20,000 nucleotides of DNA from an uncultured virus (IMG/VR IMGVR_UViG_3300006128_000009) (IMGVR_UViG_3300006128_000009); one strand, 5' to 3'; counted from the stretch's first letter, positions 6,021 through 20,000 are shown. Notes: generated from the sequence alone by a model not told the origin. A program made the numbers and translations.

Positions 6021-6035
6021 TTAACGAAAATAACG

Positions 6036-6070
6036 AAAAACCCACCAGCGGGAATATCGCTGATGGGTTT
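6036..6070 (-). terminator. intrinsic terminator
   Basis: Minus strand AAACCCATCAGCG-ATATTCC-CGCTGGTGGGTTT then TT, downstream of the 6092 stop. Confidence 0.8.
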
Positions 6071-6091
6071 CGTGTTTAAAACAAACTGGAT

Positions 6092-6310: not shown

Positions 6311-6313
6311 TTA

Positions 6314-6511: not shown

Positions 6512-6517
6512 AATAAA

Positions 6518-6545
6518 AGTATATATGGTTTTCCTATATTGTCAA
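6518..6545 (-). promoter_or_regulatory. sigma70-like promoter TTGACA-N16-TATACT
   Basis: Near-consensus hexamers in a short intergenic gap; predicted TSS coincides with the ATG at 6511. Confidence 0.75.
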
Positions 6546-6548
6546 TCC

Positions 6549-6761
6549 TTAATCTTCTGGATGTGTTGCATTACAATATTCTGCAACTCCTGCATCATAC
6601 CCCACCCTGTAATAGTAGTGTCGGGTCTGTTCGGCATGACTAAAACTTCCCCCATCATAGGGATTAGTGTCAACTCCTTCTTCAAACCCATCCACAAATC
6701 CCTTGCAATAGGCAACGCTTCTACAGAGAATAGCAGGATCAAATGTCATTTCAGTTTTCAT
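6549..6761 (-). CDS. hypothetical protein, possibly Rmf-like fold (AYxxGxxDG..NPY..YxxGYxxG)
   Basis: Start MKTEMT at 6761 (ATGA overlap, GGAGG upstream); similarity by motif pattern only. Confidence 0.6.
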   Translation of the reverse strand: MKTEMTFDPAILCRSVAYCKGFVDGFEEGVDTNPYDGGSFSHAEQTRHYYYRVGYDAGVAEYCNATHPED

Positions 6762-6967
6762 GCTTCCTCCTTTAGCGTTTTTACGATCTCTTGGCAAGCA
6801 TTTAATACGGATTCTACTTCTTGATTTGTTTCTAAAATCTCCTCTGTCAAATCCTCATATTCTGGATTGGTAGCACCATTGCAAGACCACAGAGTTCCCT
6901 CTGCATTTCGCAAGGCATTATACATCTTCCAGAACAGATCGGTTTCTATTTCGATTGTGTTTTTCAT
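6758..6967 (-). CDS. hypothetical protein
   Basis: 69 aa, ATGA overlaps at both ends. Confidence 0.7.
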   Translation of the reverse strand: MKNTIEIETDLFWKMYNALRNAEGTLWSCNGATNPEYEDLTEEILETNQEVESVLNACQEIVKTLKEEA

Positions 6968-7161
6968 TTGTAGTGTGTTGTATGGGTGATTTTGTGGGTA
7001 TAAGAATCTCTGGTAGTCTCGACAATCGTATGAGGGACAGTATAGACCTTTGTAAGATATGCGTCATCAGAAGTAACCCAACCATAGTTTGCACTATCGG
7101 CTAGTTCCTGACCAAACTTCTCAACGATGAATTTGTATTGACTAGGAAAAAATAGATTCAT
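6964..7161 (-). CDS. hypothetical protein
   Basis: 65 aa, tightly packed in the operon. Confidence 0.65.
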   Translation of the reverse strand: MNLFFPSQYKFIVEKFGQELADSANYGWVTSDDAYLTKVYTVPHTIVETTRDSYTHKITHTTHYK

Positions 7162-7163
7162 TT

Positions 7164-7460
7164 TTAAGCCTCAAGGTTCAGATAGATTCCATCCTTTGTC
7201 AAGCCCCAAAGTGAATCGATAAAAGATTTCCATTCCTCTTCAGAACAAGTCTCAACATCCTCGTCATCAGAGAACCATTCGTAGGCATCATCAATGAAAC
7301 GAGCAAACCTCTCACCATTGATAAGAGTCAGATTATTGTCCCCAAAGGAAAAATCTGGATTAGAACTAGCAAGCATATCCCAAAACCAATCCCATTCAGC
7401 AGGAATAAGACTAGTCAGATCTACGACTTTGACTGTGCGTGGTGATATAGTGGTGTTCAT
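7164..7460 (-). CDS. acidic hypothetical protein
   Basis: 98 aa, tightly packed in the operon. Confidence 0.72.
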   Translation of the reverse strand: MNTTISPRTVKVVDLTSLIPAEWDWFWDMLASSNPDFSFGDNNLTLINGERFARFIDDAYEWFSDDEDVETCSEEEWKSFIDSLWGLTKDGIYLNLEA

Positions 7461-7469
7461 AGAATTGAA

Positions 7470-7685
7470 TTAGAACTGGATTTCGCTATCCTGTAAAGCA
7501 GAAAGTGCAGAAAGATTAAAAATCAATTCATTTGAATCTTTCCACTTCGACTCCTCGCAAACCATAACACTACTATCAAAATAGTGCTGATTGAGAAATC
7601 CCTTAATACCAAGAATGACATCTTCTGGAATCTCCTGACTGTGAACGTGGAGAATAAGAGGAATGACTGTGTAGTGGTTTTTCAT
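7470..7685 (-). CDS. hypothetical protein
   Basis: 71 aa, first gene of the operon. Confidence 0.65.
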   Translation of the reverse strand: MKNHYTVIPLILHVHSQEIPEDVILGIKGFLNQHYFDSSVMVCEESKWKDSNELIFNLSALSALQDSEIQF

Positions 7686-7694
7686 AACCCCACC

Positions 7695-7723
7695 AATGGA
7701 TCATATTCCCAAAAACTTTACAA
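7695..7723 (-). promoter_or_regulatory. probable promoter (TTGTAA -35; weak -10)
   Basis: AAAATAGTTCTTGTAA is nearly identical to AAAATAGTGCTTGTAA near 1750 and lies at the same distance from the ATG. Confidence 0.45.
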
Positions 7724-7754
7724 GAACTATTTTAAACTTTTTTATGTATACCAA

Positions 7755-7867
7755 TGGTAAGACATCAATGTTTGAAAAGTCTTACCAATTATTCTGAAGT
7801 TTTCTGAAAACTGTTTGGTAAGACACCGTTGTTCAGAACAGTCTTACAATATATTGTATGGTAAGAC
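7755..7867. repeat. cluster of five TGGTAAGAC boxes in alternating orientation
   Basis: 7755-7763 fwd, 7779-7787 rev, 7816-7824 fwd, 7841-7849 rev (1 mismatch), 7859-7867 fwd; palindrome TACAATATATTGTA at 7845-7858. Confidence 0.85.
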
Positions 7868-7961
7868 AATATGTTGCAAACACATTCAGAATAATACACG
7901 CTCATGCGAATATGTTCTGAAAATGTCAAGAAAACATTGCAAAATTTTGAAAATTTTCTGG

Positions 7962-7990
7962 TTGACAAAACAGTTAAAAACATTTAGAGT
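7962..7990 (+). promoter_or_regulatory. sigma70-like promoter TTGACA-N17-TAGAGT pointing into the repeat array
   Basis: Perfect -35; back-to-back with a minus-strand TTGACA at 7924-7929. Confidence 0.45.
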
Positions 7991-8009
7991 AGACTGATTG
8001 TAATAAATG

Positions 8010-8178
8010 TGTTTAGAAATGTTTAGAAATGTGTTTAGAAATGTTTTTAATGTTTTCAGAGTGTTTAGAACTGTTCGGAAAGTATTCGGAATGTTTAGAA
8101 CTGTTTGGAAAGTGTTTGGAACTGTTCGGAATGTTTTCAGGTTATTTGAAACTATTTAGGAAGTTTTCGGAAGTTTCG
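8010..8178 (+). repeat. degenerate tandem array, ~17 units of 9-12 bp (consensus TGTTT[A/C/G]GAA[A/C])
   Basis: Units such as tgtttagaaa, tgtttagaac, tgttcggaaag, tgtttggaac; higher-order 30-bp repeat at 8062-8091 and 8092-8121. Confidence 0.85.
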
Positions 8179-8467
8179 ATAACTTGTATGAAGAATGTCT
8201 TATCATGTGGGAGGAATGTATTTTGAATACTGTTCTGGAGTTATTTCGATTAGATCGAAAGGTTCTTCAGGGGAGAAGTTTCAAATCATTTGTTATTGTA
8301 GTCTTTGGGAATTGTAAGTATTATTGTTATTGAATGGATGATAGTTGTATAGCTGTCAGTTGGATTGTTATCTTGATTCTTATTGGGACATTCCTTAAAT
8401 ATAGAAATTGATTTGTCGTATTGCTACACCATGTTGTATTTTTACACGGTGTTCTATTAAAACAGCA

Positions 8468-8496
8468 TTGACATGGATATGGGTTTCTGTTATTGT
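8468..8496 (+). promoter_or_regulatory. sigma70-like promoter TTGACA-N17-TATTGT with extended TG
   Basis: 8 nt upstream of the ATG at 8505. Confidence 0.7.
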
Positions 8497-8504
8497 ACTT
8501 GTCT

Positions 8505-8795
8505 ATGAATGAAAACCTAAATGCTGTATTGGAGAAGGGAGCAAAGGAACTTGTTACCTTTATTGTTAAGGATGAAGCTCACGGTGTATTTTTCCATGAG
8601 GCATGTGATGAGACGGAATTTACTCCTGTTACTATTGGTATGCTTTGTACTATTCTGATTAGGAATTATATTGGTGCTCTTCCTGATTCGGTTCAGAATG
8701 ATGCTATGGATGCTTGTTATAAGACTATCGAGGCTCTTCGGTCATTTCCTGAAGAGTTGGAGATGGACGATGATGAGGTATTTGGTTCTGATTAG
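8505..8795 (+). CDS. acidic hypothetical protein
   Basis: ORF from MNENLN with its own promoter and a biased (T/G-ending) codon pattern. Confidence 0.75.
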   Translation: MNENLNAVLEKGAKELVTFIVKDEAHGVFFHEACDETEFTPVTIGMLCTILIRNYIGALPDSVQNDAMDACYKTIEALRSFPEELEMDDDEVFGSD

Positions 8796-8809
8796 ACGAC
8801 GAACCATCA

Positions 8810-8834
8810 CACTCTGTTGCATTAAAACAGAGTG
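8810..8834. terminator. hairpin between convergent genes
   Basis: CACTCTGTT-GCATTAA-AACAGAGTG, a 9-bp perfect stem; no clear U-tract. Confidence 0.45.
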
Positions 8835-8861
8835 CTGTATTAAATCAGAGTTTACTTTAAA

Positions 8862-9269
8862 TTACTTGAGGTAATTTGCTGTGGAGTTTTTGTTCTCCTT
8901 TAATACTGACTTACCTTTTGCTGAAAGGTAATTTCCTGTGTTGAAAGATTCTGGATATGTTGTGGGAGTTGAAGGAGTTTGTTCTTCTTCTCCTGCATCG
9001 GAAGCTGCTTGTTGTTCTGCTTCTGGATCTTCGTGATCATCGGAATTATCTTCGTGTCCGAATTCTGCTAATGCATTGATGAGATCCATATGTTCATCTG
9101 GTGCGAGATCATGTTGAGCAAAGAGATTTTTGATACCTTCCAAGTGTTCTTGGTCTGCATAGATCGGATGACCTATTGCTTCTATGGATTGATCTTCGTT
9201 TTCTTCTACGATATGAATTGATTCGTAGAGGCTTTCGATTGCTTTTTGATCGTTGGAATTTGAATACAT
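8862..9269 (-). CDS. acidic hypothetical protein, probably late/virion-associated
   Basis: 135 aa, preceded by TATAAGTA (9278-9285, minus strand). Confidence 0.75.
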   Translation of the reverse strand: MYSNSNDQKAIESLYESIHIVEENEDQSIEAIGHPIYADQEHLEGIKNLFAQHDLAPDEHMDLINALAEFGHEDNSDDHEDPEAEQQAASDAGEEEQTPSTPTTYPESFNTGNYLSAKGKSVLKENKNSTANYLK

Positions 9270-9286
9270 GATGTAATTACTTATAC

Positions 9287-9730
9287 TTAATTGATATCAA
9301 TTAGGGGGAAAATTATTATTTTTTCTGGTGTTTCGTGGGAATCGTGTTTACTAAAGTGATGGGTATTTTGTTCTTCGTCGTATGCGATATTATAAACTAA
9401 TTCGATTCCTTCTCTTCCTGCCACTCTTATGTCTCTTACTGCTAGATTCCCGTGTGCTGTGTTAATGTGATGTGGTGTGTCATTTTCTTCCCACTTTATA
9501 TTCAAATAGTCTTTTTTTACTAAGGGATGTTTGGATACAATTCTTTGTTTTAGTCTGACTTCGGCATTGTATAATTTATCATCATCGCCTATGACCTGTG
9601 CTTTTTTATTTCTTATTTCGTTTCTTGCTATGGTTTCTGGTGATGCAAGATAGCTATGTCCGATTACCTGTAACTTACCTGTGACTTGTTCTTCGTAGAT
9701 TAGTTCTAGGTTTTTTGAATCATTTGACAT
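9287..9730 (-). CDS. hypothetical protein, probably late/virion-associated
   Basis: Likely start MSNDSK at 9730, preceded by AATAAATA (9741-9748, minus strand). Confidence 0.72.
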   Translation of the reverse strand: MSNDSKNLELIYEEQVTGKLQVIGHSYLASPETIARNEIRNKKAQVIGDDDKLYNAEVRLKQRIVSKHPLVKKDYLNIKWEENDTPHHINTAHGNLAVRDIRVAGREGIELVYNIAYDEEQNTHHFSKHDSHETPEKIIIFPLIDIN

Positions 9731-9850
9731 ATAACCTATATATTTATTTGTCATACATCCTTATTTTAATATATTTTTTTATTTTCTCTGTAGAAATATT
9801 TATTTTTTATAAAATTTGGCACAAAAGTTGATATTTTTATGGATTTTTTC

Positions 9851-9880
9851 TCCACTTTCCCCCACTTTGTGCCACATTTT
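9851..9880 (-). promoter_or_regulatory. three GTGG direct repeats at 10-bp period (MraZ-box-like)
   Basis: Minus strand AAAATGTGGC-ACAAAGTGGG-GGAAAGTGGA in a divergent intergenic region. Confidence 0.5.
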
Positions 9881-9921
9881 TTTACAATTTGGACATGTTT
9901 TGTAAGTATTTTCTGTACAAA

Positions 9922-10260
9922 ATGGACACAAAACTCAAAAGAATAACACCCGAAATTGAAAAACATGCTGCCATCCGAATAGCAATGGAATGGATAAGAT
10001 CCGGTGAAAGTTTGCTAAAACGTGATCCTAATGTAAAATATATAAAACTATCTGATGAAGTAAATGATAAGATTACTTCTCTCTATGAAGATGGTTATGA
10101 ACTCTCTGGATTTAAATATAATCTTGCCGCCAATATGAGAATCAAACAACAAGCACTAGACACTGCTCTTTCTGTCTTGAAGGTCGATGCAGGAAGAAAA
10201 GAAGATGCAAAATATCCCAATATGGTAAAGCATTTCAACATCCGACCATATAGTTTTTAA
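9922..10260 (+). CDS. hypothetical protein
   Basis: Likely start MDTKLKR at 9922. Confidence 0.7.
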   Translation: MDTKLKRITPEIEKHAAIRIAMEWIRSGESLLKRDPNVKYIKLSDEVNDKITSLYEDGYELSGFKYNLAANMRIKQQALDTALSVLKVDAGRKEDAKYPNMVKHFNIRPYSF

Positions 10261-10261
10261 T

Positions 10262-10414
10262 ATGCTTGCAGAATATATATTTGAAGTAATCGTAGATAAT
10301 ATTCCCCAATTAATTAAAGTCATTGCCCCTGACAAAGAAAAGGCACTGGAAAAAATCAATTCATTTTATTCCTCAGAACCAAAACTAATTGATATAAGAA
10401 GTATTACTTTTTGA
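10262..10414 (+). CDS. small hypothetical protein (50 aa, MLAEYIFEVIVDNIPQLIKVIAPDKEKALEKI...)
   Basis: Translated by hand; TAA-T-ATG coupling to the upstream gene. Confidence 0.6.
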   Translation: MLAEYIFEVIVDNIPQLIKVIAPDKEKALEKINSFYSSEPKLIDIRSITF

Positions 10415-10727
10415 TATCTTCGTAATCGAACTTGATATCATTGATCGTACTATCTTCGTATTTCTTAAACTTCTTCTTAAATGATTCATAATCAGTAAGA
10501 TCTGACTGATTAAACTTCGGGAGCTTTTCCCATTTCATTTTATGTTCGTGCTTCTTATAAGCATCACTATCACGACTTAGATAATAATAGCTACCAATTA
10601 TAGTTGCTAGAATAAAAATAAGGAATAACATTTTGATTGTTCCGGTAATCAAATTCTTAATCAACCAAATTGATCCAAGAACAAGAATAACAGCTAAAAG
10701 TATTTCAAGGGGATTATTATAATTCAT
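10404..10727 (-). CDS. membrane protein with two N-terminal TM helices
   Basis: Two hydrophobic stretches followed by a Lys-rich soluble part. Confidence 0.7.
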   Translation of the reverse strand: MNYNNPLEILLAVILVLGSIWLIKNLITGTIKMLFLIFILATIIGSYYYLSRDSDAYKKHEHKMKWEKLPKFNQSDLTDYESFKKKFKKYEDSTINDIKFDYEDIKK

Positions 10728-10900
10728 TTTCTTATGACGTTACTGGAATAGTATTTACCATTATATTTGAATTCATATACATCTCTACCAAAGAGATCCT
10801 CGCTAATTCCCACAAAGACCGTATCATTTACAGGAATCCATTCTCCCTCCACCATGACATATGCTTCCTTTAGTCCGTATCTGTCTTCATCGTTATCCAT
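10724..10900 (-). CDS. small hypothetical protein (58 aa, MDNDEDRYGLKEAYVMVEGEWIPV...)
   Basis: Translated by hand; ATGA overlap with the next gene. Confidence 0.6.
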   Translation of the reverse strand: MDNDEDRYGLKEAYVMVEGEWIPVNDTVFVGISEDLFGRDVYEFKYNGKYYSSNVIRK

Positions 10901-11496
10901 GATGGTTCTACTTTATCAGATTTGATTCCGAAATGCAACAATAAATTCTTAACTATTTCAATCTGAAGATTGACTCTAGTTTCAATGTCATGAGGTCTGA
11001 TGGGTGTTTCGATAGTACAGGAGGGTATTCCTCTCTTTCTTAATGCTCTCTCAAGTGTTCCTTTAGTTGGCAAATGTCCATGTGTAATGACTCCTCTTTC
11101 GGTTTTATCTCCTATTGCACTCTTTGCGAGTTTTACATTTAGATCAGCAAGAATCTTCTGTAGGGTCTTTTTCATGTCCGGTGAAGAATAAGCATAGACT
11201 TCATCGGTCGTATCATCTTCGTGCATAGCTATGACCAAGCTTGGATTTATTTGTTCTATCTTTGTAAGTATCTTATCTTCAACTGGTAATGAATCTTTCT
11301 CATCGAAATGTCTATTGGGATCTACTCCCTCAAGTCTTCTATGACCAGTTGTGTTTACATTACAAATGATATCAACTCCCTCTATTCCCTCAAATTTCTT
11401 TGCCGCTATATTTCCTGCTGGTTCATCTCCATGAATACCACCAACTAAAACAATACGGGGATTTGTATATTTCTTGTAAAGATTATCGAATTTCAT
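10870..11496 (-). CDS. M14-family zinc carboxypeptidase / succinylglutamate desuccinylase-like protein
   Basis: GGIHGDEPAG (HxxE), DPNRHF, AMHED and TIETP motifs; TAAATA 6 nt upstream. Confidence 0.8.
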   Translation of the reverse strand: MKFDNLYKKYTNPRIVLVGGIHGDEPAGNIAAKKFEGIEGVDIICNVNTTGHRRLEGVDPNRHFDEKDSLPVEDKILTKIEQINPSLVIAMHEDDTTDEVYAYSSPDMKKTLQKILADLNVKLAKSAIGDKTERGVITHGHLPTKGTLERALRKRGIPSCTIETPIRPHDIETRVNLQIEIVKNLLLHFGIKSDKVEPSWITMKTDTD

Positions 11497-11505
11497 TCTT
11501 AATAT

Positions 11506-12000
11506 TTACACCCACCAATCGGGTGTATTATTAAGTTTATCCCATTTGGCAAATGCTCTCTTGGCTCCCATATAATAATTCCTATATGCTGTGACTGCAT
11601 CGGGATGTTTATATTCATCTGGCATTGCTTGTGCAAAACTTGTCAGCGGACCATCCGGTATCATCTCTGCCATATTTTTAAGGAAGATAATACCTCTCTC
11701 ACATGAATGAGTTTTTCTGTATCTATTTGAATATTCGATACATAGATACATACCATGATCTGCCGCCCAGTTGAAATTAGCTCTCGTTTGTCCTACCCAA
11801 CGTGTACAGGGATGATTATGATAACCACCTTTAAGAGGTGTTCCACTTGCAGTCAAAGGCATTTCCCAACTCTGTGCTCCATGACGAATCACAGCAGAAC
11901 CCAACTGCTGAAATATCTCAAGGATCATTTTTACAACATGCTTGTCACAATGATATTGTGCAGCAATATAAGGATCGTTATCTAGAATGAATATGTTCAT
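11506..12000 (-). CDS. pyrimidine-dimer DNA glycosylase / endonuclease V-like family protein
   Basis: MNIFILD.DP..AAQYHCDKHVVKMILE..Q, HNHPCTRW, F.QAMPDEYK..DAVTAYRNYY signature. Confidence 0.7.
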   Translation of the reverse strand: MNIFILDNDPYIAAQYHCDKHVVKMILEIFQQLGSAVIRHGAQSWEMPLTASGTPLKGGYHNHPCTRWVGQTRANFNWAADHGMYLCIEYSNRYRKTHSCERGIIFLKNMAEMIPDGPLTSFAQAMPDEYKHPDAVTAYRNYYMGAKRAFAKWDKLNNTPDWWV

Positions 12001-12154
12001 TGGTAGTTATTTTGTATACTTTATAAAAAGCATACCCTACACTATACCATACTGTCAATGAGATAAGAAAAGAAAGTAATATGATAACCAAACGAATGTA
12101 ACCCCATTTGCGTTCCTCTCTTTGTCTATCATATTCTAAATCATCGGGTTCCAT
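11978..12154 (-). CDS. small membrane protein (58 aa, MEPDDLEYDRQREERKWGYIRLVIILLSFLISLTVWYSVGYAFYK...)
   Basis: Translated by hand; fills the gap, single TM helix. Confidence 0.55.
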   Translation of the reverse strand: MEPDDLEYDRQREERKWGYIRLVIILLSFLISLTVWYSVGYAFYKVYKITTNEHIHSR

Positions 12155-12156
12155 AA

Positions 12157-12390
12157 TTATGAATTCCTTGGTAGATAAACTACTTGCTTTATGTCACTTA
12201 GCCAACTTAGAGGTCTTGTGTCGGAATCCTGATATTCACCATCATACCAACCTTTACCTTCTCCTGCTTTGACGACATTGATTTCATGAATGTTGTTGAC
12301 AAGATCATATCCTGTTTCATATCCATCGACAACCACTTCGGTTTCAGGATCGAACTTCTGAAGTTCTTTTATTAGGTCTTTGATTTTCAT
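12157..12390 (-). CDS. hypothetical phage protein (MKIKDLIKELQKFDPETEVVV type)
   Basis: Common phage N-terminal pattern; ATGA overlap. Confidence 0.75.
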   Translation of the reverse strand: MKIKDLIKELQKFDPETEVVVDGYETGYDLVNNIHEINVVKAGEGKGWYDGEYQDSDTRPLSWLSDIKQVVYLPRNS

Positions 12391-12704
12391 GATTTGTTTT
12401 CGTATTCGTTTATTGTTTCCCAAAGAGAATCAATATCATAACAGATTTCGACTTTCTTTCTACCTACTTTCTTATATGCCTTATTGATCTTACCATCCAT
12501 ACCTTCTCTCTCATAAAGAAACCAATCAATCCATGTCAGTTGATCAGCATTAAATGCTGCCTTCATGAGTTCATCAATGACATGTTCGTAATTTTCTTCA
12601 AAATGCATAAGATCAATTCCAAGCTTATAAGCATCATGAGATCTCTTACGAGCAGTCTGGGTATTAAGAATGATCTTCTGGAAAGATTGCTTTGTCATAT
12701 TCAT
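12387..12704 (-). CDS. hypothetical phage protein (WIDWFLYE motif)
   Basis: 105 aa, coupled to its neighbours. Confidence 0.75.
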   Translation of the reverse strand: MNMTKQSFQKIILNTQTARKRSHDAYKLGIDLMHFEENYEHVIDELMKAAFNADQLTWIDWFLYEREGMDGKINKAYKKVGRKKVEICYDIDSLWETINEYENKS

Positions 12705-12943
12705 TGTTTAAAATCAAATTTAAATACAAGAGTTTGAATCTTATCTAGCAGATCATAGTTTACAATACGATTTCCATCCTTATCCCATAGATAACAATGA
12801 CCAACCTTATTCATAATAGGAGTCTTGTCATCATAGGCATGTTCGATAAACATGGGATCATACCAATTATAGTAATATGTTTCTCCCTTATGAGTAATCT
12901 CATACAGAGATAGTTTATATTCCTTTTTATCTTTGATTTTCAT
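12701..12943 (-). CDS. hypothetical protein
   Basis: 80 aa, coupled to its neighbours. Confidence 0.7.
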   Translation of the reverse strand: MKIKDKKEYKLSLYEITHKGETYYYNWYDPMFIEHAYDDKTPIMNKVGHCYLWDKDGNRIVNYDLLDKIQTLVFKFDFKQ

Positions 12944-13299
12944 CAGTTTTCTACGGAATGATTGATCTTAAAGCCACCAGTTCTATGATACTCTTCGTTC
13001 TTTTCACCAATCTGGAACCAAGAAGTCTCTCCCTTCTCGCAGGAATTAGCATACTCTTTCCAATTGATATTTTCTACCATCTTATCAATCTCACTTGCTG
13101 TCTTCTCATCAAGATCATATGGAATACCATCGTAGCGACAGTTATTGATAAACTCTTGGATATATTTAAGAAAATCCTCTTCAGTTTCTCCTGTATATGG
13201 ATTATCCTCAAGCTTCTTGAACTTCTTGGGATCAAGCTCTGCAACCTCAGTTGTTTGCCAGATTGTTATCTCTTCTACTTTACGGATTTGGTATTTCAT
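12943..13299 (-). CDS. hypothetical protein
   Basis: 118 aa, TGATG overlap. Confidence 0.75.
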   Translation of the reverse strand: MKYQIRKVEEITIWQTTEVAELDPKKFKKLEDNPYTGETEEDFLKYIQEFINNCRYDGIPYDLDEKTASEIDKMVENINWKEYANSCEKGETSWFQIGEKNEEYHRTGGFKINHSVEN

Positions 13300-13308
13300 A
13301 TGTTATTT

Positions 13309-13827
13309 TTAGTTAGTTTGAAGTTTAAAAGGAGTTACGATAATACGAGGCTCAATATAAACTGGCTTCACGTTATTACCATTAGGATCTTTGAGAAGAA
13401 CCCAAGTACCATCACAGCTTGCAGGGGAATACAAACCATTGGGATCAGCCTGTGGAATAGTTACATTGCCTTGTTCATACGTCTCATAAGACTTTGCTGG
13501 TCTCATTGGACTAGTATATTGGGTAGCATATGGGATACCATAACCAATACTTTCACCAAGAAAGATAAGTTTACCTGTATTCTCTGCTACAATGTATGTA
13601 TATGTAGTAAGACCATCCTGATCTCTCATCTCAAGAATATCCTTGAGAAGTTTCTTCTCACGAAAGTTCTTGATTGCTGGCATACCAACTTCAGATGCAC
13701 ATTCCTTTAGGATTTCTTCTTGTCTACGATTCTGAACCTGATCACTCGTTGTACGTATAGTAGTATCACAACCAGTGATTGCAAATGTTGCTACTGTGGC
13801 AATAATTAGGATTAGTTTGTTTTTCAT
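13309..13827 (-). CDS. lipoprotein
   Basis: Signal peptide with lipobox ITGC; core SIGYGIPYATQYTSP..QADPNGLYSP..GTWV..VYIEP. Confidence 0.8.
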   Translation of the reverse strand: MKNKLILIIATVATFAITGCDTTIRTTSDQVQNRRQEEILKECASEVGMPAIKNFREKKLLKDILEMRDQDGLTTYTYIVAENTGKLIFLGESIGYGIPYATQYTSPMRPAKSYETYEQGNVTIPQADPNGLYSPASCDGTWVLLKDPNGNNVKPVYIEPRIIVTPFKLQTN

Positions 13828-13839
13828 GTGTTTATTTTT

Positions 13840-14079
13840 TTATACTGAAAGGTGCTTTTCTAGGGTTATTTTACCGTAATATGGTTTGAATTGACTACTC
13901 CATTTATCTAAATGCATTCCAATTTCTTCTGGAAATTTACTGTATAACAATGTGCCAGTATAACCAAGACCACCATGACCAGTATTTGTGGCTAAAATAA
14001 CCATTCCCTCGTCGTTGACCATCAAAGTTGGAAATCCCAAGTTGTTTGTGTTATTGTCTTCTATTTTTGTTGATTTCAT
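13840..14079 (-). CDS. hypothetical protein
   Basis: 79-aa ORF in the operon. Confidence 0.7.
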   Translation of the reverse strand: MKSTKIEDNNTNNLGFPTLMVNDEGMVILATNTGHGGLGYTGTLLYSKFPEEIGMHLDKWSSQFKPYYGKITLEKHLSV

Positions 14080-14084
14080 ATGTA

Positions 14085-14432
14085 TTAGAATTTGTGGGTT
14101 TGATTGTTCTTGAGTGTCTGGATAAAACTATAAAGATCCGGAGGAAGTTTGTCAACATCATAATCAGCAGCACGATGAAGAATGATAGAACCAAGTGCTG
14201 ATTGATGATCCTTATCTGTTTGAATATATTGATATTGCATATTTTCAAGCTCTTGAATCATACCTTGGTTATATGCCTTAGATTGTTCAAAGACTTGACG
14301 ACGAACTGCTTCCTGTTTTGGAGCAAAGTATTTGTACAGGAAGAAATCGTTTCCTGTAAAAACCCAGCTTAAACCAAGCACGATTACGATGATTGCGAGG
14401 AACGATAGGAATGCTGCGAATATGTCTTTCAT
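14085..14432 (-). CDS. membrane-anchored protein (N-terminal TM, helical soluble domain)
   Basis: Hydrophobic N-terminus, then FAPKQEAVRRQVFEQSKAYNQG. Confidence 0.78.
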   Translation of the reverse strand: MKDIFAAFLSFLAIIVIVLGLSWVFTGNDFFLYKYFAPKQEAVRRQVFEQSKAYNQGMIQELENMQYQYIQTDKDHQSALGSIILHRAADYDVDKLPPDLYSFIQTLKNNQTHKF

Positions 14433-14469
14433 AATTGTTTATGTAGTATATGTAATTTTTTATAAAGTG

Positions 14470-15033
14470 TCAAGGTAAATCGTCATTGGAAACCTCTACA
14501 CGATGTGCTCCATGTTCGGGACAAAGAGTTTTCCACCAGCCATCACGATATGTCTTACCTTTATTTCCACAGACTTCACAAGTCTTATGAGAAAGATATT
14601 CTGTGAAATTTACAGCAGAATCTACATCTCTCCAATAACGATCAGATTGCTTATTGTAATCTTCATCGTCATACTTGGCGAGTTCTTCTTCTGGAATGTC
14701 ATGATACATATCAAAATATATTCTAAGACCCGCAAACTTTTCCTTTATCTGTAAGAAACGAAATTTTGGTGCAGGTATGTGAGCATTTTTTAAATGCGTT
14801 TCTTCTTCGGCTTTCTTTTCTTCATCGGTCTTAACATAATTTTTCTTATATTGCACAACCATATTTCCACGACAAACTGAGGTTATATATCCACAAAGAT
14901 TATCAAGGAGATCATACCATCCATCATCATGCTCACAACCCCATGTCATGCAAGTTTCCTTTGGATCTCCTCCATGAAAACGGAAGAGATCAGGATACTT
15001 CTTTACGAGTTCAATTTCGAGTTCTTCTCTCAT
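14470..15033 (-). CDS. conserved hypothetical phage protein (GW..L, QIKEKFAGLRIY, CEVCG..C..H zinc site)
   Basis: Recognisable motif set; function unknown. Confidence 0.8.
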   Translation of the reverse strand: MREELEIELVKKYPDLFRFHGGDPKETCMTWGCEHDDGWYDLLDNLCGYITSVCRGNMVVQYKKNYVKTDEEKKAEEETHLKNAHIPAPKFRFLQIKEKFAGLRIYFDMYHDIPEEELAKYDDEDYNKQSDRYWRDVDSAVNFTEYLSHKTCEVCGNKGKTYRDGWWKTLCPEHGAHRVEVSNDDLP

Positions 15034-15236
15034 TAAATATCTCCGGTTTGCTCACAGGCTTCAATAATTTGATCCTTGAGTTCGCCTTCAATATATTCAT
15101 TATCTGAATTTATTACGAGCACCTCTTCCAACTTTCCAAAATCATAATGGAAAGTGGCGGTGTAAGTTTCTTCGCCGTCTTCAACGGTGAATTCGTAGGT
15201 TTCAGTCTTTTGGTGGAAGTCTAGTTCTGCTTTCAT
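15033..15236 (-). CDS. acidic hypothetical protein
   Basis: 67 aa, TAATG coupling. Confidence 0.7.
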   Translation of the reverse strand: MKAELDFHQKTETYEFTVEDGEETYTATFHYDFGKLEEVLVINSDNEYIEGELKDQIIEACEQTGDI

Positions 15237-15257
15237 ATATTTTTTAATTGGTTAACC

Positions 15258-15285
15258 ATTTTACCTCAAAATAGAAAAGAATCAA
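15258..15285 (-). promoter_or_regulatory. sigma70-like promoter TTGATT-N16-TAAAAT
   Basis: Intergenic, upstream of the ATG at 15236. Confidence 0.5.
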
Positions 15286-15343
15286 CAACAAAATTAAAGA
15301 AATCCAAACTGTAATAGGATTATTCCAGAATTTTTTAATCATT

Positions 15344-16006
15344 TCAATTCGTTTTATCAAGTTTACGATAAAGTCTTGGATTACTTTGTTCTAAACATTT
15401 TCTCATATTTTTTTGTTTAGCTTTGTAGCTTTCAAGTTGACTTTTCCTCATTTCTTCTTTTTCTTGCTTTAATTGTTTTTGCGATTTGTGATTAACGAAA
15501 AGTTCAGTCTTTTCTACAAAATCATATAATCCATATGTAGAAGAATATTTCTTTCCACCATGTGTGAAAAACTCTTGTATATTAAGAAGTTTTATTGCTA
15601 ACTTTCTCGCTTTTGATCCTTCTTGTGTATCGGAAAGAAATAATTCATGTAAATTTTTATCGGGAAATTCTTCCTGTAATTCTTTAGTACTCTGTTCGGA
15701 CAAAAAACTACTAATAGCACGAACATGTATTTGCTCCATTCGGGCAGTAGATTTCTTTTGGTCTTCGGGTATGGGAGTGTGTTCTATGTCATGACATTTT
15801 CTACATAAAACAAGAAGGTCTTTAATTGATTCCTGACCCCAAGTTTCAGGATAATAGACATGATGAACATCTCTACCTTCACCGCCACAGTGTTGACACG
15901 TGTATCTATAATACCTAAGAGCATTTTCCCTTATATCTTTCCACGTATCACTTTTAAGATATTCTCTATATAGAGATTGTTTAGGTGTAATTTTTTCTTC
16001 TTCCAT
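15344..16006 (-). CDS. HNH endonuclease with a C-terminal extension
   Basis: YREYLKSDTWKDIR..CQHCG..DVHHVYY..DLLVLCRKCHDIEH. Confidence 0.8.
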   Translation of the reverse strand: MEEEKITPKQSLYREYLKSDTWKDIRENALRYYRYTCQHCGGEGRDVHHVYYPETWGQESIKDLLVLCRKCHDIEHTPIPEDQKKSTARMEQIHVRAISSFLSEQSTKELQEEFPDKNLHELFLSDTQEGSKARKLAIKLLNIQEFFTHGGKKYSSTYGLYDFVEKTELFVNHKSQKQLKQEKEEMRKSQLESYKAKQKNMRKCLEQSNPRLYRKLDKTN

Positions 16007-16008
16007 AA

Positions 16009-16617
16009 TTAATATCCCATGTTAAGTTCTTGGGCTTGATTTGCAAGTTGGTCTAAAACTTTTTCACGACAATCAAATCCAAAGACTTCTTTCTCAACAA
16101 CGCCAAGTTCAATTGGAGTATAGTTAATATGTTCACATGAAACACAGAAATATCTTGGATCTATGGTATATCCTAAATTATCTGGTTTAAACTCCATAAC
16201 TCTTCTGTCATGAATGTGACCATGCACGTTCACCTTATGTGCTTTACCAAATGAACTAGGATGAATTGGAATATGACTCATGATAATGCCATTATCTAAA
16301 CGATGAGTACCACGAATATCTTTGAAATACTTTGCATATTCTTTCATCTCGTAAATATCATGATTACCCTTGATAAGAACTTTCTTACCATTAATTTTAC
16401 CAAAATTTTCAATATCTTTCTTTTTTTGAGCTACATCACCAAGAACGTATACTTTATCACTTGGATGAGTAACAACTTTGTTCCAGTTTTCGATTAATGT
16501 AGCATCATGTTCCTCTACGCTATTGAATGGACGCAATGCTTGATTGAAACCATCATTTACGATGAGCATGTCCAAATCCCCAAAATGGAGATCCGCTATT
16601 AGAAATACATTTTTCAT
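16009..16617 (-). CDS. calcineurin-like metallophosphoesterase
   Basis: DLHFG, LGDV, GNHD, SHIP and HGHIH motifs. Confidence 0.9.
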   Translation of the reverse strand: MKNVFLIADLHFGDLDMLIVNDGFNQALRPFNSVEEHDATLIENWNKVVTHPSDKVYVLGDVAQKKKDIENFGKINGKKVLIKGNHDIYEMKEYAKYFKDIRGTHRLDNGIIMSHIPIHPSSFGKAHKVNVHGHIHDRRVMEFKPDNLGYTIDPRYFCVSCEHINYTPIELGVVEKEVFGFDCREKVLDQLANQAQELNMGY

Positions 16618-16776
16618 TTACCAGTGTCGAATTACACCAGCTATTATAAAGAAATTCGTGATAATGTAAACTAAAATAATTAAAGTTCGGATTAATGCTA
16701 TAAGATCAGCTTCTTTGTCATGTCTACCAGCTTTATCACCAAGGGCTTTTGCCCAAAGTCTCCAAACATTTTTCAT
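16618..16776 (-). CDS. small membrane protein (52 aa, MKNVWRLWAKALGDKAG..ADLIALIRT..NFFIIAGVIRHW)
   Basis: Translated by hand; resembles a small family I recall from aquatic T4-like phages. Confidence 0.75.
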   Translation of the reverse strand: MKNVWRLWAKALGDKAGRHDKEADLIALIRTLIILVYIITNFFIIAGVIRHW

Positions 16777-16791
16777 GATTATTTGTTAAAA

Positions 16792-17034
16792 TTATTTCTT
16801 TGCGACTCTTTTTACTGGTTTATTGGGATGTTTTCTTATATCCCATAAGATGGCAATAAGAGGAACGCCAAAAAGAGCAAAAACTACTGTGAATATGATT
16901 CCCACAAACCAAACTGCTGCACAATAATCCACCGGAATAGGTGGAGTTACGGTAATATGACCTCTATGAATATGCTCACATGCACAATCATCTCCACCAT
17001 ATAGAACGGAACCCCACAGAATGGATTTTAACAT
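16792..17034 (-). CDS. membrane protein
   Basis: 80 aa, one TM helix followed by a basic tail. Confidence 0.6.
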   Translation of the reverse strand: MLKSILWGSVLYGGDDCACEHIHRGHITVTPPIPVDYCAAVWFVGIIFTVVFALFGVPLIAILWDIRKHPNKPVKRVAKK

Positions 17035-17043
17035 TGTTAAATT

Positions 17044-17187
17044 TTACCAAGCAATACCAGAAAATGTTTTACCAACAATAAGAACTGCTTTGTTTGCAAC
17101 AGCCTTATCATCGGTTTTCTTTACGATGTGATGAACACATCCGTTTAAACAAGTGATTGCAATAGCGATTAAGATTATGTTTTTCAT
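17044..17187 (-). CDS. small lipoprotein (47 aa, MKNIILIAIAITCLNGC...)
   Basis: Translated by hand; lipobox LNGC. Confidence 0.6.
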   Translation of the reverse strand: MKNIILIAIAITCLNGCVHHIVKKTDDKAVANKAVLIVGKTFSGIAW

Positions 17188-17194
17188 ATTTAAT

Positions 17195-17222
17195 ATATTA
17201 TCACACTTATAAACTTTTTCAA
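17195..17222 (-). promoter_or_regulatory. sigma70-like promoter TTGAAA-N16-TAATAT with extended TG
   Basis: In the intergenic gap, 7 nt above the ATG at 17187. Confidence 0.55.
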
Positions 17223-17235
17223 GTGCTTTTTTAAA

Positions 17236-17502
17236 TCACCCATACCACTCTCTATCTGGTAAAGATTCTGCACTCACTTTACAATCTGGTCCTTTATATG
17301 GAACATAAGGAATGTCTTTTCCAAAATGAGGATCAATGTTTGGAGGTACTGGAACAGTTGGAATGATTACAAGCTTCTCAATCAGCTTCTGAATAATAAT
17401 AGACTGATCCATAATTTTTTCATTCTGTTGATTGAGTTGCTTTTGAAGTTCATCAATCTTTTTAGATATTTCATCTAATTTGTTTTCTTGTATAATGTTC
17501 AT
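17236..17502 (-). CDS. hypothetical protein (coiled coil plus Pro-rich tail)
   Basis: 88 aa, ATGA overlap. Confidence 0.7.
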   Translation of the reverse strand: MNIIQENKLDEISKKIDELQKQLNQQNEKIMDQSIIIQKLIEKLVIIPTVPVPPNIDPHFGKDIPYVPYKGPDCKVSAESLPDREWYG

Positions 17503-17801
17503 ATCAAATTATCTTCTCTAATTTTAACATAAAATGTTTTCAATGATGAAACAAAATCTCTACCCACTGTATTTCTATGTACTATAAAAAATATCATTCC
17601 TAGCCTTATATTTCTCAATTTAGCTTTTGATTCTTCTATTTCAGATAGTTGAGACTTTATTGTTGTGTTTTCAGCAAGCTCATAAAACACATCTGGAATC
17701 ATTCCCTTTTCTCTTTCAAAGTAAGGCTTAACAAAGCTGTTAAAATGCTCTATAAGCTCTGCTTTTGTGCCAATAACAATTTCTTCAATTTCAACACTCA
17801 T
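17499..17801 (-). CDS. hypothetical protein
   Basis: Likely start MSVEIE at 17801. Confidence 0.7.
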   Translation of the reverse strand: MSVEIEEIVIGTKAELIEHFNSFVKPYFEREKGMIPDVFYELAENTTIKSQLSEIEESKAKLRNIRLGMIFFIVHRNTVGRDFVSSLKTFYVKIREDNLI

Positions 17802-17805
17802 AATA

Positions 17806-18054
17806 TTAGCTCCAATCCCATGCAAAGTCAAAAGGATTACAAAATCCTAACCAATATGAAAAAGATCTGCAATCTCCAACTTCTGCTAAACATTTTTTAG
17901 ATATTTTTACAGTTTTAACACTATCTTTTTTCATATAAAACATTCTTTCACCCATAAAGGAGTCATAACATACATTACAATCTTCAACAGCAGTTAACTC
18001 TACAGTATCTTTAAAGATACCTCTCTTTCTTTTTGTACAAATAACTTCTTTCAT
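17806..18054 (-). CDS. hypothetical protein
   Basis: 82 aa, tightly packed. Confidence 0.65.
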   Translation of the reverse strand: MKEVICTKRKRGIFKDTVELTAVEDCNVCYDSFMGERMFYMKKDSVKTVKISKKCLAEVGDCRSFSYWLGFCNPFDFAWDWS

Positions 18055-18055
18055 A

Positions 18056-18319
18056 TCAATTCCTAGGATCAGTCCAATTCTGAATAGGATAAGGTGTATT
18101 GAGAATCATTTCAACAAAAGCTTTTCCTTTTTCAGTGAGTGTAAGTTGATCAGCATCAGAATCATGTTCAGCAAATCTCACTAGGATATGATCTTTTAGT
18201 AATTGACTAGCAGCATCATATTCTGCCTTATTCCATCTGTTGATCATATACCTTGGCATATAGTGAGCTTTAAGTAGAATCTCAATCTTTAAGGGACTGT
18301 GTAGGTTTCTTGTGATCAT
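18056..18319 (-). CDS. hypothetical protein, possible winged helix (LTLTEKGKAFVE)
   Basis: wHTH wing-type LTEKG motif. Confidence 0.7.
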   Translation of the reverse strand: MITRNLHSPLKIEILLKAHYMPRYMINRWNKAEYDAASQLLKDHILVRFAEHDSDADQLTLTEKGKAFVEMILNTPYPIQNWTDPRN

Positions 18320-18320
18320 A

Positions 18321-18437
18321 TTATTTTAAATACCATTTAGTTATAAAAACTACAAACCATACTGCAAAGGGTATAAAAATCAATTGAAGAATTCCTTTAA
18401 AGAGTTCAAATGTATTATTGTCTATTGTTATGTCCAT
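18321..18437 (-). CDS. small membrane protein (38 aa, MDITIDNNTFELFKGILQLIFIPFAVWFVVFITKWYLK)
   Basis: Translated by hand; TAA-T-ATG coupling on both sides. Confidence 0.65.
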   Translation of the reverse strand: MDITIDNNTFELFKGILQLIFIPFAVWFVVFITKWYLK

Positions 18438-18438
18438 A

Positions 18439-18744
18439 TTAATCTCCAATTGGTGGTACAGTTACTTTAGTTGGTTTATCCTTTTCAATCCTCCAAGCAT
18501 CCTTAAACCATCTGCACATTGGATCTAAGTCCTCAATAACTGGAACATTATTATTCCATGTAAATGTAGAGACATAACCATCTTCAGGAAAACCATAGCT
18601 AAATCTATCTTGACATTTCTCATTGACATAATTTACAAAATTGTCTTTCATGTCTGGTTTGTAATGATCAAATGCAGTATCAATATCATCTAAGATAGAC
18701 CACAATCTTTCAGCAATTAGCTTATAGTTAATTTCTTCTTCCAT
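18439..18744 (-). CDS. hypothetical phage protein (LWSILDDIDTA motif)
   Basis: 101 aa, tightly packed. Confidence 0.75.
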   Translation of the reverse strand: MEEEINYKLIAERLWSILDDIDTAFDHYKPDMKDNFVNYVNEKCQDRFSYGFPEDGYVSTFTWNNNVPVIEDLDPMCRWFKDAWRIEKDKPTKVTVPPIGD

Positions 18745-18745
18745 A

Positions 18746-19024
18746 TTATTTTACAGCCTTCTCTGTTGTCTCATTATAAGCAAATTTCTCCATCTGCTTA
18801 ATATATCTCAAAGCTGTCTGATGTCTAGTCTCATTTTCATAACAACTAGAAACATTAAAAATTAGCTCATGATAAAGATCAGAAAGGTTTTCATACTTCT
18901 TTCTATTAACAACACCATCAAATGCTTCTACATTATGCATCTCCATCCAATTGTATAGGACTTTAGCAGCAGCAATGATCTCAGGTGGAATGTCTGTTAC
19001 TGGTGGATAGATATCATTGTTCAT
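18746..19024 (-). CDS. hypothetical phage protein (ETRHQTALRYI motif)
   Basis: 92 aa, coupled to its neighbours. Confidence 0.75.
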   Translation of the reverse strand: MNNDIYPPVTDIPPEIIAAAKVLYNWMEMHNVEAFDGVVNRKKYENLSDLYHELIFNVSSCYENETRHQTALRYIKQMEKFAYNETTEKAVK

Positions 19025-19242
19025 AGATTAAATGCCTCATTAACTCTTTCTTCAAACTTCTTAACAGCTGGGAGGATAATTTGAGTTGTTGTAAAGTCAT
19101 TTGTCTTAAGCTCTCTTGCTATAACATCTCCAAACTCTAATGCTGCTAGGTTAACTTTATTTCTAATAACAGAAAGCTCATCATGTTCTTCTAGTCCAGT
19201 TAGAACTTCTTTTAGGAAATTTTTAATCTCTTCTCTTTTCAT
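19021..19242 (-). CDS. hypothetical protein
   Basis: 73 aa, AGGAGG upstream. Confidence 0.72.
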   Translation of the reverse strand: MKREEIKNFLKEVLTGLEEHDELSVIRNKVNLAALEFGDVIARELKTNDFTTTQIILPAVKKFEERVNEAFNL

Positions 19243-19243
19243 A

Positions 19244-19627
19244 TCAATCCTCCTTAGTGTTGTTTACTACAATCATCTTCTCATCAGCAATCTTATAAAC
19301 CTCAAAGAAATCCTTTCTATTCTCTTCACTGAGTTCAAGGATCCTAGGACCAACTGATTCTAGATCACAGCATTCATCCTTCTTGTCATATTTGAGCCAA
19401 GCAATAACATAACAAGTCTCCTTCATATCAAAGAACTTTACAGAGATATTAGATCTATCCTTACAGACAAACCCATTCTTCTCTACAAAGCCATCCTTAA
19501 TATACTCATCATACTTTCCATAATAAGAACAAGGTTCCCAGACAAGAAACTCACCCTTATCAATAGATGGATTAGTATTACAGTTATTTCTAAACTCTAT
19601 ATTGTTAATTCTTACTTTGATGTTCAT
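19244..19627 (-). CDS. hypothetical phage protein
   Basis: Likely start MNIKVRI at 19627 (TAA-T-ATG). Confidence 0.75.
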   Translation of the reverse strand: MNIKVRINNIEFRNNCNTNPSIDKGEFLVWEPCSYYGKYDEYIKDGFVEKNGFVCKDRSNISVKFFDMKETCYVIAWLKYDKKDECCDLESVGPRILELSEENRKDFFEVYKIADEKMIVVNNTKED

Positions 19628-19628
19628 A

Positions 19629-19820
19629 TTATTCCTTTTTGTATGTGTAATAATGTACTTCATGCTCTGCATAAGCTGCAAAGCTCTTATTACACTCATC
19701 ACATTCTACTTCAATAGTATCATTATGCCCTCTAAAATACTCAAAAGAATCTCCACTCTCATGACCACAATAAGGGCAAACTATTTCATCAGTATAGCTA
19801 CAATCAAATTCTTCTTCCAT
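19629..19820 (-). CDS. small zinc-ribbon protein (CPYCG...CDEC)
   Basis: Likely start MEEEFD at 19820; two CxxC pairs. Confidence 0.75.
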   Translation of the reverse strand: MEEEFDCSYTDEIVCPYCGHESGDSFEYFRGHNDTIEVECDECNKSFAAYAEHEVHYYTYKKE

Positions 19821-19831
19821 ATCAATCTTTA

Positions 19832-20000
19832 TTATTCTAAGTCTACACAAAGGGTTGGTGTTGCTACAACTGCTGTTGTATCTTTATTAACTTCCTTTAA
19901 CATTGGTTCAATATGTTTATCCCACAAAGCTATCCATTCCTCTTTATCATCAATAGCCCACCTCTCTGTCTCAATAACAATATAAGAACCAGAACCATTA
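19832..20000 (-). CDS. hypothetical protein, 3' part (..GSGSYIVIETERWAIDD..)
   Basis: Open frame running off the window edge. Confidence 0.6.
   Translation of the reverse strand, partial: NGSGSYIVIETERWAIDDKEEWIALWDKHIEPMLKEVNKDTTAVVATPTLCVDLE

Follow-up and report, generated by a model that had tools for sequence, protein, structure and literature searches.

A CG-free island of exchangeable small-gene cassettes in a large freshwater phage

Why does a stretch of phage DNA lack one dinucleotide entirely while the adjoining genes retain it? The question is raised by a 20,000-nt sequence of the uncultured virus IMGVR_UViG_3300006128_000009 (here called the window, meaning this whole stretch). 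A preliminary description, made from the sequence alone, had read no CG dinucleotide across the block at 17168-20000, about 12 in the preceding 16621-17167, and a prediction of several tens. Automated counting agrees on each point. The window holds 433 CG, the final one at 17166-17167; the block holds 0, and 16621-17167 exactly 12. Expectation for the block is 66.0 CG from base composition and 59.4 from the local rate of 6000-17167, with a Poisson probability of zero of 1.7e-26. Every 500-nt segment from 17251 on contains 0 CG against 9-13 expected, whereas the observed/expected ratio (o/e) outside the block is 0.33-1.15 per 500 nt, and the longest other CG-free gap within the window is 257 nt. 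The analysis below indicates that the block very probably belongs to an array of horizontally exchanged small-gene cassettes kept CG-free by selection acting on the nucleic acid.

Codon preference does not suffice to produce this pattern. Two codon controls were applied to the 11 open reading frames (ORFs) of the block, with 2000 trials. Recoding the block proteins with the codon usage of 22 outside genes gave 73.6 ± 7.2 CG (minimum 52). Permuting the block's own synonymous codons gave 22.9 ± 3.7 CG at codon junctions (minimum 12), and zero was reached in 0 of 2000 trials. Since shuffled codons still yield CG at junctions, the avoidance exceeds any codon preference and spans all three codon phases. 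Both sliding-window ratios and codon-shuffled controls, the checks proposed when the locus was first described, thus confirm the absence of CG. The block contains 30 AGA, 6 AGG and no CGN arginine codons, as had been read by eye, compared with 47 AGA, 6 AGG and 41 CGN outside; arginine accounts for 3.9% of residues inside and 3.6% outside. The phage carries the tRNA-Arg(tct) that had been pointed out, which reads AGA (tRNA scan, 2499-2573, minus strand). AGA is also the commonest arginine codon outside the block, so an island-specific role for this tRNA is unsupported. The loss is specific to CG, again in line with the first reading: GC (69), GATC (15), AGCT (20), TGCA (9) and CTAG (10) persist in the block. 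As many as 10.5% of all possible single substitutions in the block would produce a CG.

An assembly chimera or a sequencing artefact might be suspected, since the window ends within the block and related contigs tend to stop inside islands. Such an origin is already contradicted by independent contigs and is rejected, its remaining probability being negligible. Contig L001, a separate metagenome contig, matches 17834-20000 at 99.95% identity, with a single mismatch in 2167 nt; its 2347 nt contain 0 CG and reach 180 nt beyond the window end. With L001, the CG-free island spans at least 3.0 kb, of which 2.8 kb is visible in the window. Contigs of three public freshwater runs span the edge at 17167, namely X1 (14000-17316, with 0 differences), X2 (16786-17310) and X3 (17101-17282), although one of these runs may be the window's own source sample. 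All runs containing window sequence are labelled freshwater or aquatic metagenomes; runs X5-X24, which contain only minor portions of it, are left out of the evidence. Gene strand and gene packing continue unbroken across the edge, and no fewer than 10 other assemblies show this feature as well. A misassembly at ~17200 had been suggested as something to check; contigs of three runs cross the edge, and no breakpoint is present. The preliminary description had also placed a sharp edge at the promoter gap 17188-17235. The sharp boundary holds, but its position shifts: the edge falls within the next gene, 21 nt in and thus just beyond the gap.

Decay offers another route to CG loss, either through CpG methylation and deamination or through deaminase hypermutation limited to the region, and CG is the classic target of methylation-driven decay elsewhere in biology. 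The data contradict this explanation as well, and it is rejected as having next to no probability. For TG/CA, the symmetrised odds ratio barely differs between the block (1.23) and the flank (1.17), whereas for AG/CT it is 1.24 in the block against 0.97 in the flank. Arginine content is unchanged and merely recoded to AGA and AGG, and the ORFs are intact. A search for a CG-specific methyltransferase, which had been proposed, returned no C5-methyltransferase (PF00145) in 10 related records, 7 of them incomplete, while controls matched in 9 of 14 named genomes. Moreover, decay would neither reach zero nor account for the filtering of substitutions between genomes. In 106 inter-genome island alignments (10,964 aligned nt, 853 substitutions), 4 CG were observed in the partners and 3 in the queries. 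Random placement of equally many substitutions of the same spectrum gives 60.1 ± 7.3 new CG (lowest of 500 runs, 41); as the alignments share content, the excess is not an exact probability. Because 4 CG are seen against about 60 expected, without a TG/CA excess and with no C5-methyltransferase found in the 10 records, what removes CG is ongoing selection on the nucleic acid rather than deamination decay. Of the two origins offered in the preliminary description, regional selection against CG is therefore upheld by the codon controls and by the substitutions.

The ban on CG is not absolute. Pooled islands (30.2 kb from the window, G001, G002, L013, L014, L020, L098 and L100) retain 15 CGs, about 8 of them in palindromic tetramers (TCGA 6, ACGT 1, GCGC 1), a small sample from islands that are themselves defined by CG paucity. 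A union of many CG-containing restriction sites was considered as the cause and set aside, as palindromic contexts are not preferentially removed among the leftover CGs. Two further words are scarce in the pooled islands: GGCC occurs 8 times against 27 scaled from the flanks, and CATG has a Markov o/e of 0.54 against 0.96. The sense-strand C/G ratio is likewise lower in islands (0.59-0.70 versus 0.75-0.89), probably as a by-product of CG removal at the codon level.

Comparable loci recur in related phages. Among 80 IMG/VR loci fetched via the phosphoesterase gene, long CG-free runs appear only in closer relatives (L002, L012, L013, L014 and L020). Related freshwater phages with rIIA and rIIB genes carry one CG-free or CG-poor locus of 3-9 kb in genomes of 140-226 kb, filled with small ORFan genes. 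The complete 140.5-kb genome G002 has a single CG-free gap of 3213 nt (105892-109104) in a record of 3930 CG, the next longest gap being 505 nt. The complete genomes G003 (225.8 kb) and G005 (218.4 kb) each have one CG-poor locus of about 7-9 kb across both contig ends, at 221001-225756 plus 1-2292 in G003 and at 212531-218400 plus 1-2908, including a 3832-nt gap, in G005. In G004 (176.8 kb, 82% complete) there is one locus at ~5.1-9 kb, and in G001 (130 kb, 60% complete) several patches all lie in the first 31 kb. If CG were spread at a uniform rate, the number of gaps of 1 kb or longer would be expected to be 7e-5 in G003, 3e-3 in G004 and 2e-8 in G005. Whole-record o/e is 0.55-0.85 for G001-G005 (G002 0.85, G005 0.81). 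Together with the ratios outside the block in the window, these values differ from the gradual, genome-wide depletion without a boundary that had been named as the opposite outcome. Not all members of the clade are depleted to the same degree: a zone of ~25 kb in G006 is CG-poor, and in G008 depletion extends across the whole 75 kb, with an o/e of 0.37. Comparison with orthologues in related phages, also proposed at the outset, shows that the homologues of the window's island genes in L002, L008, L012, L014, L098 and L100 are without exception located in DNA that is CG-free or CG-poor.

Many island loci stand at contig ends, which assembly branching at shared cassettes explains equally well as a physical end. 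The 123-bp end repeat of G002 is an assembly overlap. Unique parts of the island have ~1.2x flank depth, not 2x, and the island is therefore not a collapsed terminal repeat.

How the island genes came to be shared is evident from their unequal similarity. Between the window and its relatives, nucleotide identity is 83-96% inside the island and 66-87% outside, and the matches inside are gene-sized segments alternating with genes that have no match. Cassettes at 82-96% identity are common to the window and G005, whose phosphoesterase protein is only ~50% identical. Because island identity exceeds flank identity between phages, the island genes must be horizontally exchanged. One gene of L002 (7488-8198) is itself recombinant: its 5' part is diverged and bears CG, whereas its 3' part is free of CG and almost the same as in the G002 homologue. 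The shared cassettes at 17216-17416, 18824-19024 and 19427-19627 reach 3-8x the flank summed depth; contigs stop at cassette borders, and the alternative neighbors are likewise CG-free. When 192 island proteins were clustered, 90 of 119 clusters were singletons. The second origin suggested in the preliminary description, a module recombined from a lineage exposed to CpG methylation, consequently stands in part. Recombination between lineages is supported by the chimeric gene, the identity contrast, and the contig branching. A methylation history is not, given the nearly equal TG/CA ratios, the intact proteins, and the lack of PF00145 in the 10 records. Free-standing HNH and LAGLIDADG endonuclease genes occur between or inside CG-free patches, at 6504-7598 and 8122-8940 in L002, at 15344-16006 in the window and at 6574-7413 in L125; the two HNH genes of L002 are CG-rich and on the opposite strand.

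A conserved 28-nt element marks many cassette junctions. In G001, cassettes are preceded by an identical element consisting of TTGACA, 17 nt and TAGAAT, followed by the start codon. With up to 5 substitutions allowed, this element and a second type (P2) have many copies in G001, G003, G005, G006, G008 and G009, nearly all in CG-poor surroundings; 10 of 11 copies in G003 lie inside the island (the eleventh is 230 nt away), as do 7 of 7 in G005. Exact copies of the 28-mer are present at 35 sites, spread over 15 IMG/VR contigs; in L002 the element lies at 3084-3132, 3924-3972, 4549-4597 and 8997-9038. Taking at most 5 CG per kb as CG-poor, 20 sites are CG-poor on both sides, 6 are CG-rich upstream and CG-poor downstream, 3 show the reverse, 5 are CG-rich on both sides, and 1 is mixed. 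Thus 29 of the 35 adjoin CG-poor DNA on one or both sides, and at 9 the CG density changes from one side of the element to the other. CG status accordingly belongs to the cassette and often switches at the junction, while the element alone does not dictate it. Since some exact sites have CG-rich DNA downstream, neither promoter type nor early expression alone dictates CG loss.

Not a letter of the element differs between phages whose core genes share only 50-78% identity, and no match to it was found in cultured phages. Its invariant 17-nt spacer suggests a function beyond that of a promoter, perhaps as a regulator site or a recombination site. Near-consensus sigma-70 sites are 4-8x denser in the islands of G001, G003, G004 and G005 (four of five genomes). 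A promoter and terminator scan of 14000-20000 in the window gave 36 sites versus 29.1 ± 6.1 in shuffles, which is not above the shuffles. Unrelated island ORFs of L002, ending at 3109, 3304, 3949 and 4574, share the final residues LDTSS, as their 3' ends run into the conserved junction element.

The visible island (17168-20000) is occupied by small genes, all on the minus strand. The 5'-most, at 19832-20000, is an open ORF whose 5' part lies beyond the window; in L001 it has an ATG start and a P2-type promoter-like element at ~20102-20129 in window-equivalent positions. This P2 copy (L001 47-74, 3 substitutions) stands just upstream of the window's first visible island gene, in the part covered by L001 only. 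Next in order, the gene at 19629-19850 encodes a 73-aa zinc-ribbon-like protein of phrog_6504, the sole match of Pfam and PHROGs searches on the window's island genes; its G001 copy is 96% identical in nucleotides and likewise lies in CG-free DNA. A gene of ~127 aa follows at 19244-19627, with an ATG start (GTG at 19702 is possible) and no family match, and then a 73-aa gene at 19021-19242 whose cassette family is present in 5 island-bearing genomes. The 92-aa gene at 18746-19024 is the most abundant shared cassette (summed contig depth 86-149 versus 14-20 in the flank). Its protein is modelled as three helices with a predicted local distance difference test (pLDDT) score of 75.9, and the model has no match in the Protein Data Bank (PDB) at E <= 0.001.

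Further downstream lie a 101-aa ORFan at 18439-18744 (ORF scan, Pfam and PHROGs), a hydrophobic 42-aa ORF with a TTG start at 18321-18449 (ORF scan), and an 87-aa gene at 18056-18319 with 93-95% nucleotide identity to copies in G003 and G008. They are followed by two more ORFans by ORF scan and Pfam, one of 82 aa at 17806-18054 and one of 100-110 aa at 17499-17831. The last island gene (17236-17502) encodes an 88-aa protein with a coiled-coil N-terminus and a Pro-rich C-terminus. No other island family is as widespread: members occur in 8 island-bearing genomes, and in G002 and L008, too, a member closes the island. An atlas look-up for the family gave nothing usable (best score 0.81). The intergenic gap at 17188-17235 (minus strand) contains a sigma-70-like site (TTGAAA, 16 nt, TAATAT, TG-extended). 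It forms the cassette junction at the 3' side of the island and is still CG-free. The first CG-bearing gene downstream, at 17044-17187 on the minus strand, encodes a lipoprotein-like protein of 47 aa and has its nearest CG at 17166. This ORF has a signal peptide and a lipobox-like LNGC motif; in G003, nucleotide conservation of its promoter and N-terminal part is 87%. Across nine sources, 7 of 118 island ORFs reach the Pfam cut-off (ExoX-like_C, HD_4, EamA, N_methyl, Metallophos, LAGLIDADG_3 and YopX), with no known anti-defence family among these seven.

Elsewhere in the window are rIIB (2734-3804), rIIA (3808-5811), an HNH endonuclease gene (15344-16006) and the phosphoesterase gene (16009-16617), along with genes for a DenV-like protein, an Ogg-like glycosylase, tRNA-Lys, tRNA-Arg(tct) and tRNA-Met. 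The tRNA-Lys(ttt), tRNA-Arg(tct) and tRNA-Met(cat) genes form a cluster at 2420-2657 beside rIIB, and phosphoesterase and PNK-like genes lie nearby in relatives. The tRNA-Lys, tRNA-Arg and tRNA-Met species are targets of known anticodon nucleases. RIIA is at most 33% identical to that of the closest cultured phage, and a megablast search of 15000-20000 against cultured phages gave no match; an exact 40-mer search of IMG/VR gave none either. The complete relative G002 encodes a family-B DNA polymerase, a UvsX-like protein, a ribonucleotide reductase, a dCMP deaminase and a tape-measure protein of 1929 aa; its terminase shares no more than 25% identity with that of any cultured phage. T4-like traits (rIIA, rIIB, the DenV-like and UvsX-like proteins and the family-B polymerase) are thus combined with unlike ones, namely the long tape measure and the remote terminase. 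Judged by these genes, the phage probably represents a new lineage of large phages that would not be T4-type in the strict sense.

Two side observations bear on possible DNA modification and on the host of this lineage. At ~67-84 kb of G002 (L086-L087), three glycosyltransferase genes, a nucleotide-sugar epimerase, an aminotransferase, and a methyltransferase stand beside replication genes; this cluster could serve DNA hypermodification or a surface sugar pathway. In L008, a gene for a 242-aa outer-membrane beta-barrel protein (723-1451) is inserted as a moron between the island end and the phosphoesterase gene, which points to a Gram-negative host. In an atlas look-up, this outer-membrane-protein-like gene shows a weak lean to Pseudomonadota.

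What, then, would keep these cassettes free of CG? The first part of our explanation is very probable: the block is part of a CG-free array of small accessory genes in a large rIIA/rIIB freshwater phage. The genes are drawn from a pool of gene-sized cassettes swapped by recombination, often at the conserved promoter-like element. Purifying selection on DNA or RNA keeps each cassette CG-free, in all three codon phases and in the spacers. The selecting agent may be a CG-recognizing activity in the infected cell, acting while the island genes must function. It could be a host defence not yet neutralized, or else a weapon that the phage itself turns on host DNA. Even one CG within a cassette would then carry a cost, whereas later protection or other means may cover the remaining genome. 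The early-exposure cause is proposed because the same logic applies to the T5 first-step-transfer region and to T7-like leading regions; early timing of the island genes is read from promoter-like motifs only. A CG-recognizing activity present while the cassettes must work is therefore possible as the cause, and we hold it tentatively. Mobile CG-free cassettes combined with such an activity form the best explanation as a whole, with an even chance of being correct.

Several observations weigh against it. The 106 island alignments are not mutually independent. A co-occurring variant, 18650 A>G, creates a CG, and the islands of relatives hold rare CGs. Exact junction elements with CG-rich DNA on both sides (5 of 35) or downstream (3) exist, and window genes downstream of the edge also follow a promoter-like site yet carry CG. 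No near-consensus sigma-70 site was found in the island of G002. In G002, G003 and G005, the island starts 2-7 kb into a co-directional gene array, and the genes ahead of it in the array carry CG. Finally, we know of no bacterial nuclease, binder or RNase that is CG-specific, and none was identified in this analysis.

Other explanations accept the mobility of the cassettes but place the selection elsewhere. The islands could be recent imports from a reservoir lineage under CG avoidance, with no selection in the present phages and a slow regain of CG. Exchange is demonstrated, and this account is to that extent partly true. It fits the assignment of CG status to single cassettes, the switches at junction elements and even within a gene of L002, and the greater likeness of island DNA than of flanks between phages. 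The uneven overall depletion among relatives, from G008 and the ~25-kb zone of G006 to G002 and G005, agrees with it too, and some islands hold 1-4 CG per kb, as if decaying. Yet no wholly CG-free genome exists among the relatives examined, and CG-free DNA holds only small accessory genes, never the core genes, which recombine most easily. Copies in at least 6 genomes have stayed CG-free through 4-24% divergence, and import merely moves the question of the selecting agent to another lineage. As a full explanation, we consider it unlikely.

Selection could instead act on RNA, if the host had an activity that cuts or senses CG in RNA (a toxin RNase or an abortive-infection sensor, for instance) and that met the first transcripts of host RNA polymerase before phage shut-off. 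The abundance of strong host-type promoter-like sites in islands, the loss of CG in all codon phases and in transcribed spacers, and the nearby RNA-repair-like and tRNA genes (phosphoesterase, a PNK-like HAD protein, tRNA-Lys, tRNA-Arg and tRNA-Met) are what such an activity would lead one to expect. CG is self-complementary, however, and sequence alone cannot separate RNA from DNA as the target. Genes behind the same promoter element can be CG-rich, read-through transcripts from the island would enter CG-bearing genes, and to our knowledge no bacterial RNase has plain CG specificity; the idea is very unlikely. Nuclease-driven gene conversion is also highly improbable. Here, in a homing-like manner, a phage nuclease tethered at or near the junction element would cut CG-bearing alleles in co-infecting genomes, and repair would copy the CG-free allele, spreading CG-free cassettes and erasing new CGs. 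CG-free alleles do spread between genomes with breakpoints inside genes, as in L002; HNH or LAGLIDADG genes lie in or beside islands (15344-16006 in the window, two in L002, one in G004); and the junction element is strikingly conserved. Against this, no nuclease has been linked to the element, the islands of the window and G002 run for kilobases without it, and the endonuclease genes are inconsistently present.

The explanation favored here, a CG-recognizing activity met by mobile CG-free cassettes, has partial parallels in known phages. Site-free first-entering regions have precedents in the first-step-transfer (FST) region of T5 and BF23 and in the first-injected region of Autographiviridae; in T5 and BF23, restriction, CRISPR and Ssp systems succeed only with sites in the FST region (PMC10644984, PMC12455610). 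Those regions resemble the present islands in being short, variable stretches of small early genes, mostly of unknown function, without a motif found elsewhere in the genome, and the explanation given there is exposure before protection is in place. They differ in that the missing sites are of 4-13 bp and belong to known restriction systems, whereas here the missing word is the bare dinucleotide CG with no known cognate enzyme. First entry was, moreover, shown experimentally there, while the islands here are known from sequence and do not stand at the array start in three complete relatives. A second parallel is the shuffling of promoter early stem-loop (PeSL) elements in the hyperplastic regions of T4-type phages, where small ORFans flanked by conserved early-promoter motifs are gained, lost or swapped (PMC2839356, PMC4122927). 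Shared features include a promoter-containing motif at junctions, here with 35 exact sites in 15 contigs, as well as the presence, absence and replacement of cassettes; the likeness covers the promoter half of the element. In the accessible text of these sources, no compositional signature such as CG loss is mentioned. The phages studied here, furthermore, are not T4-type in terminase or tail genes, unlike the PeSL hosts.

Loss of the dinucleotide itself has a counterpart in the phage crAss001, in which positions 1-50000 (L134) contain 44 CG versus 1397 expected (o/e 0.03). As here, the loss is near total and achieved by silent rewriting, in a phage of ~34% G+C. In contrast to this Bacteroides podovirus-like phage, where it extends throughout the examined 50 kb, the loss here is confined to 2-4% of the genome, the rest having an o/e of 0.55-0.85. 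In crAss001, 25 of the 44 CG fall within the first 6 kb, which holds tRNA genes. Staphylococcus phage K is reported to lack GATC, a 4-bp site with known cognate enzymes, across its genome. The full elimination of a short palindromic word by selection is shared with the islands, whereas the word in phage K has 4 bp and its absence is genome-wide. The host-takeover module of SPO1 is a cluster in the terminal redundancy, where strong promoters of host type serve some two dozen small early genes; we know of no report of dinucleotide loss in it. A full-text search, with subscription journals outside its range, turned up no publication describing either CG-free phage islands or the loss of CG in crAss-like phages; one candidate, PMC13037316, was discarded, "CpG" being an acronym there.

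That first-exposed phage DNA may locally avoid restriction sites is known, though always for the sites of known enzymes. What is new in these phages is that the missing word is a dinucleotide and that its absence is a heritable trait of a mobile gene pool shared across phage genera. A broader scenario is doubtful and offered with reserve: freshwater bacteria, and perhaps also Bacteroides, the host of crAss001, might possess a CG-reading activity directed at incoming DNA or first transcripts, or the phages might wield one against host DNA. The islands would then hold precisely the genes needed during that activity, including its inhibitor or immunity factor, as a counter-defence toolkit shared between phage genera and recombining at the 28-nt element. 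If the purge of CG reflects a defence or a weapon, its recognition principle would be one so far undescribed in bacteria. Long CG-free runs would, if this is true, serve as a computational marker for first-acting genes, including candidate counter-defence genes, and the cultured phage crAss001, with its own CG loss, provides a laboratory system for the same question.

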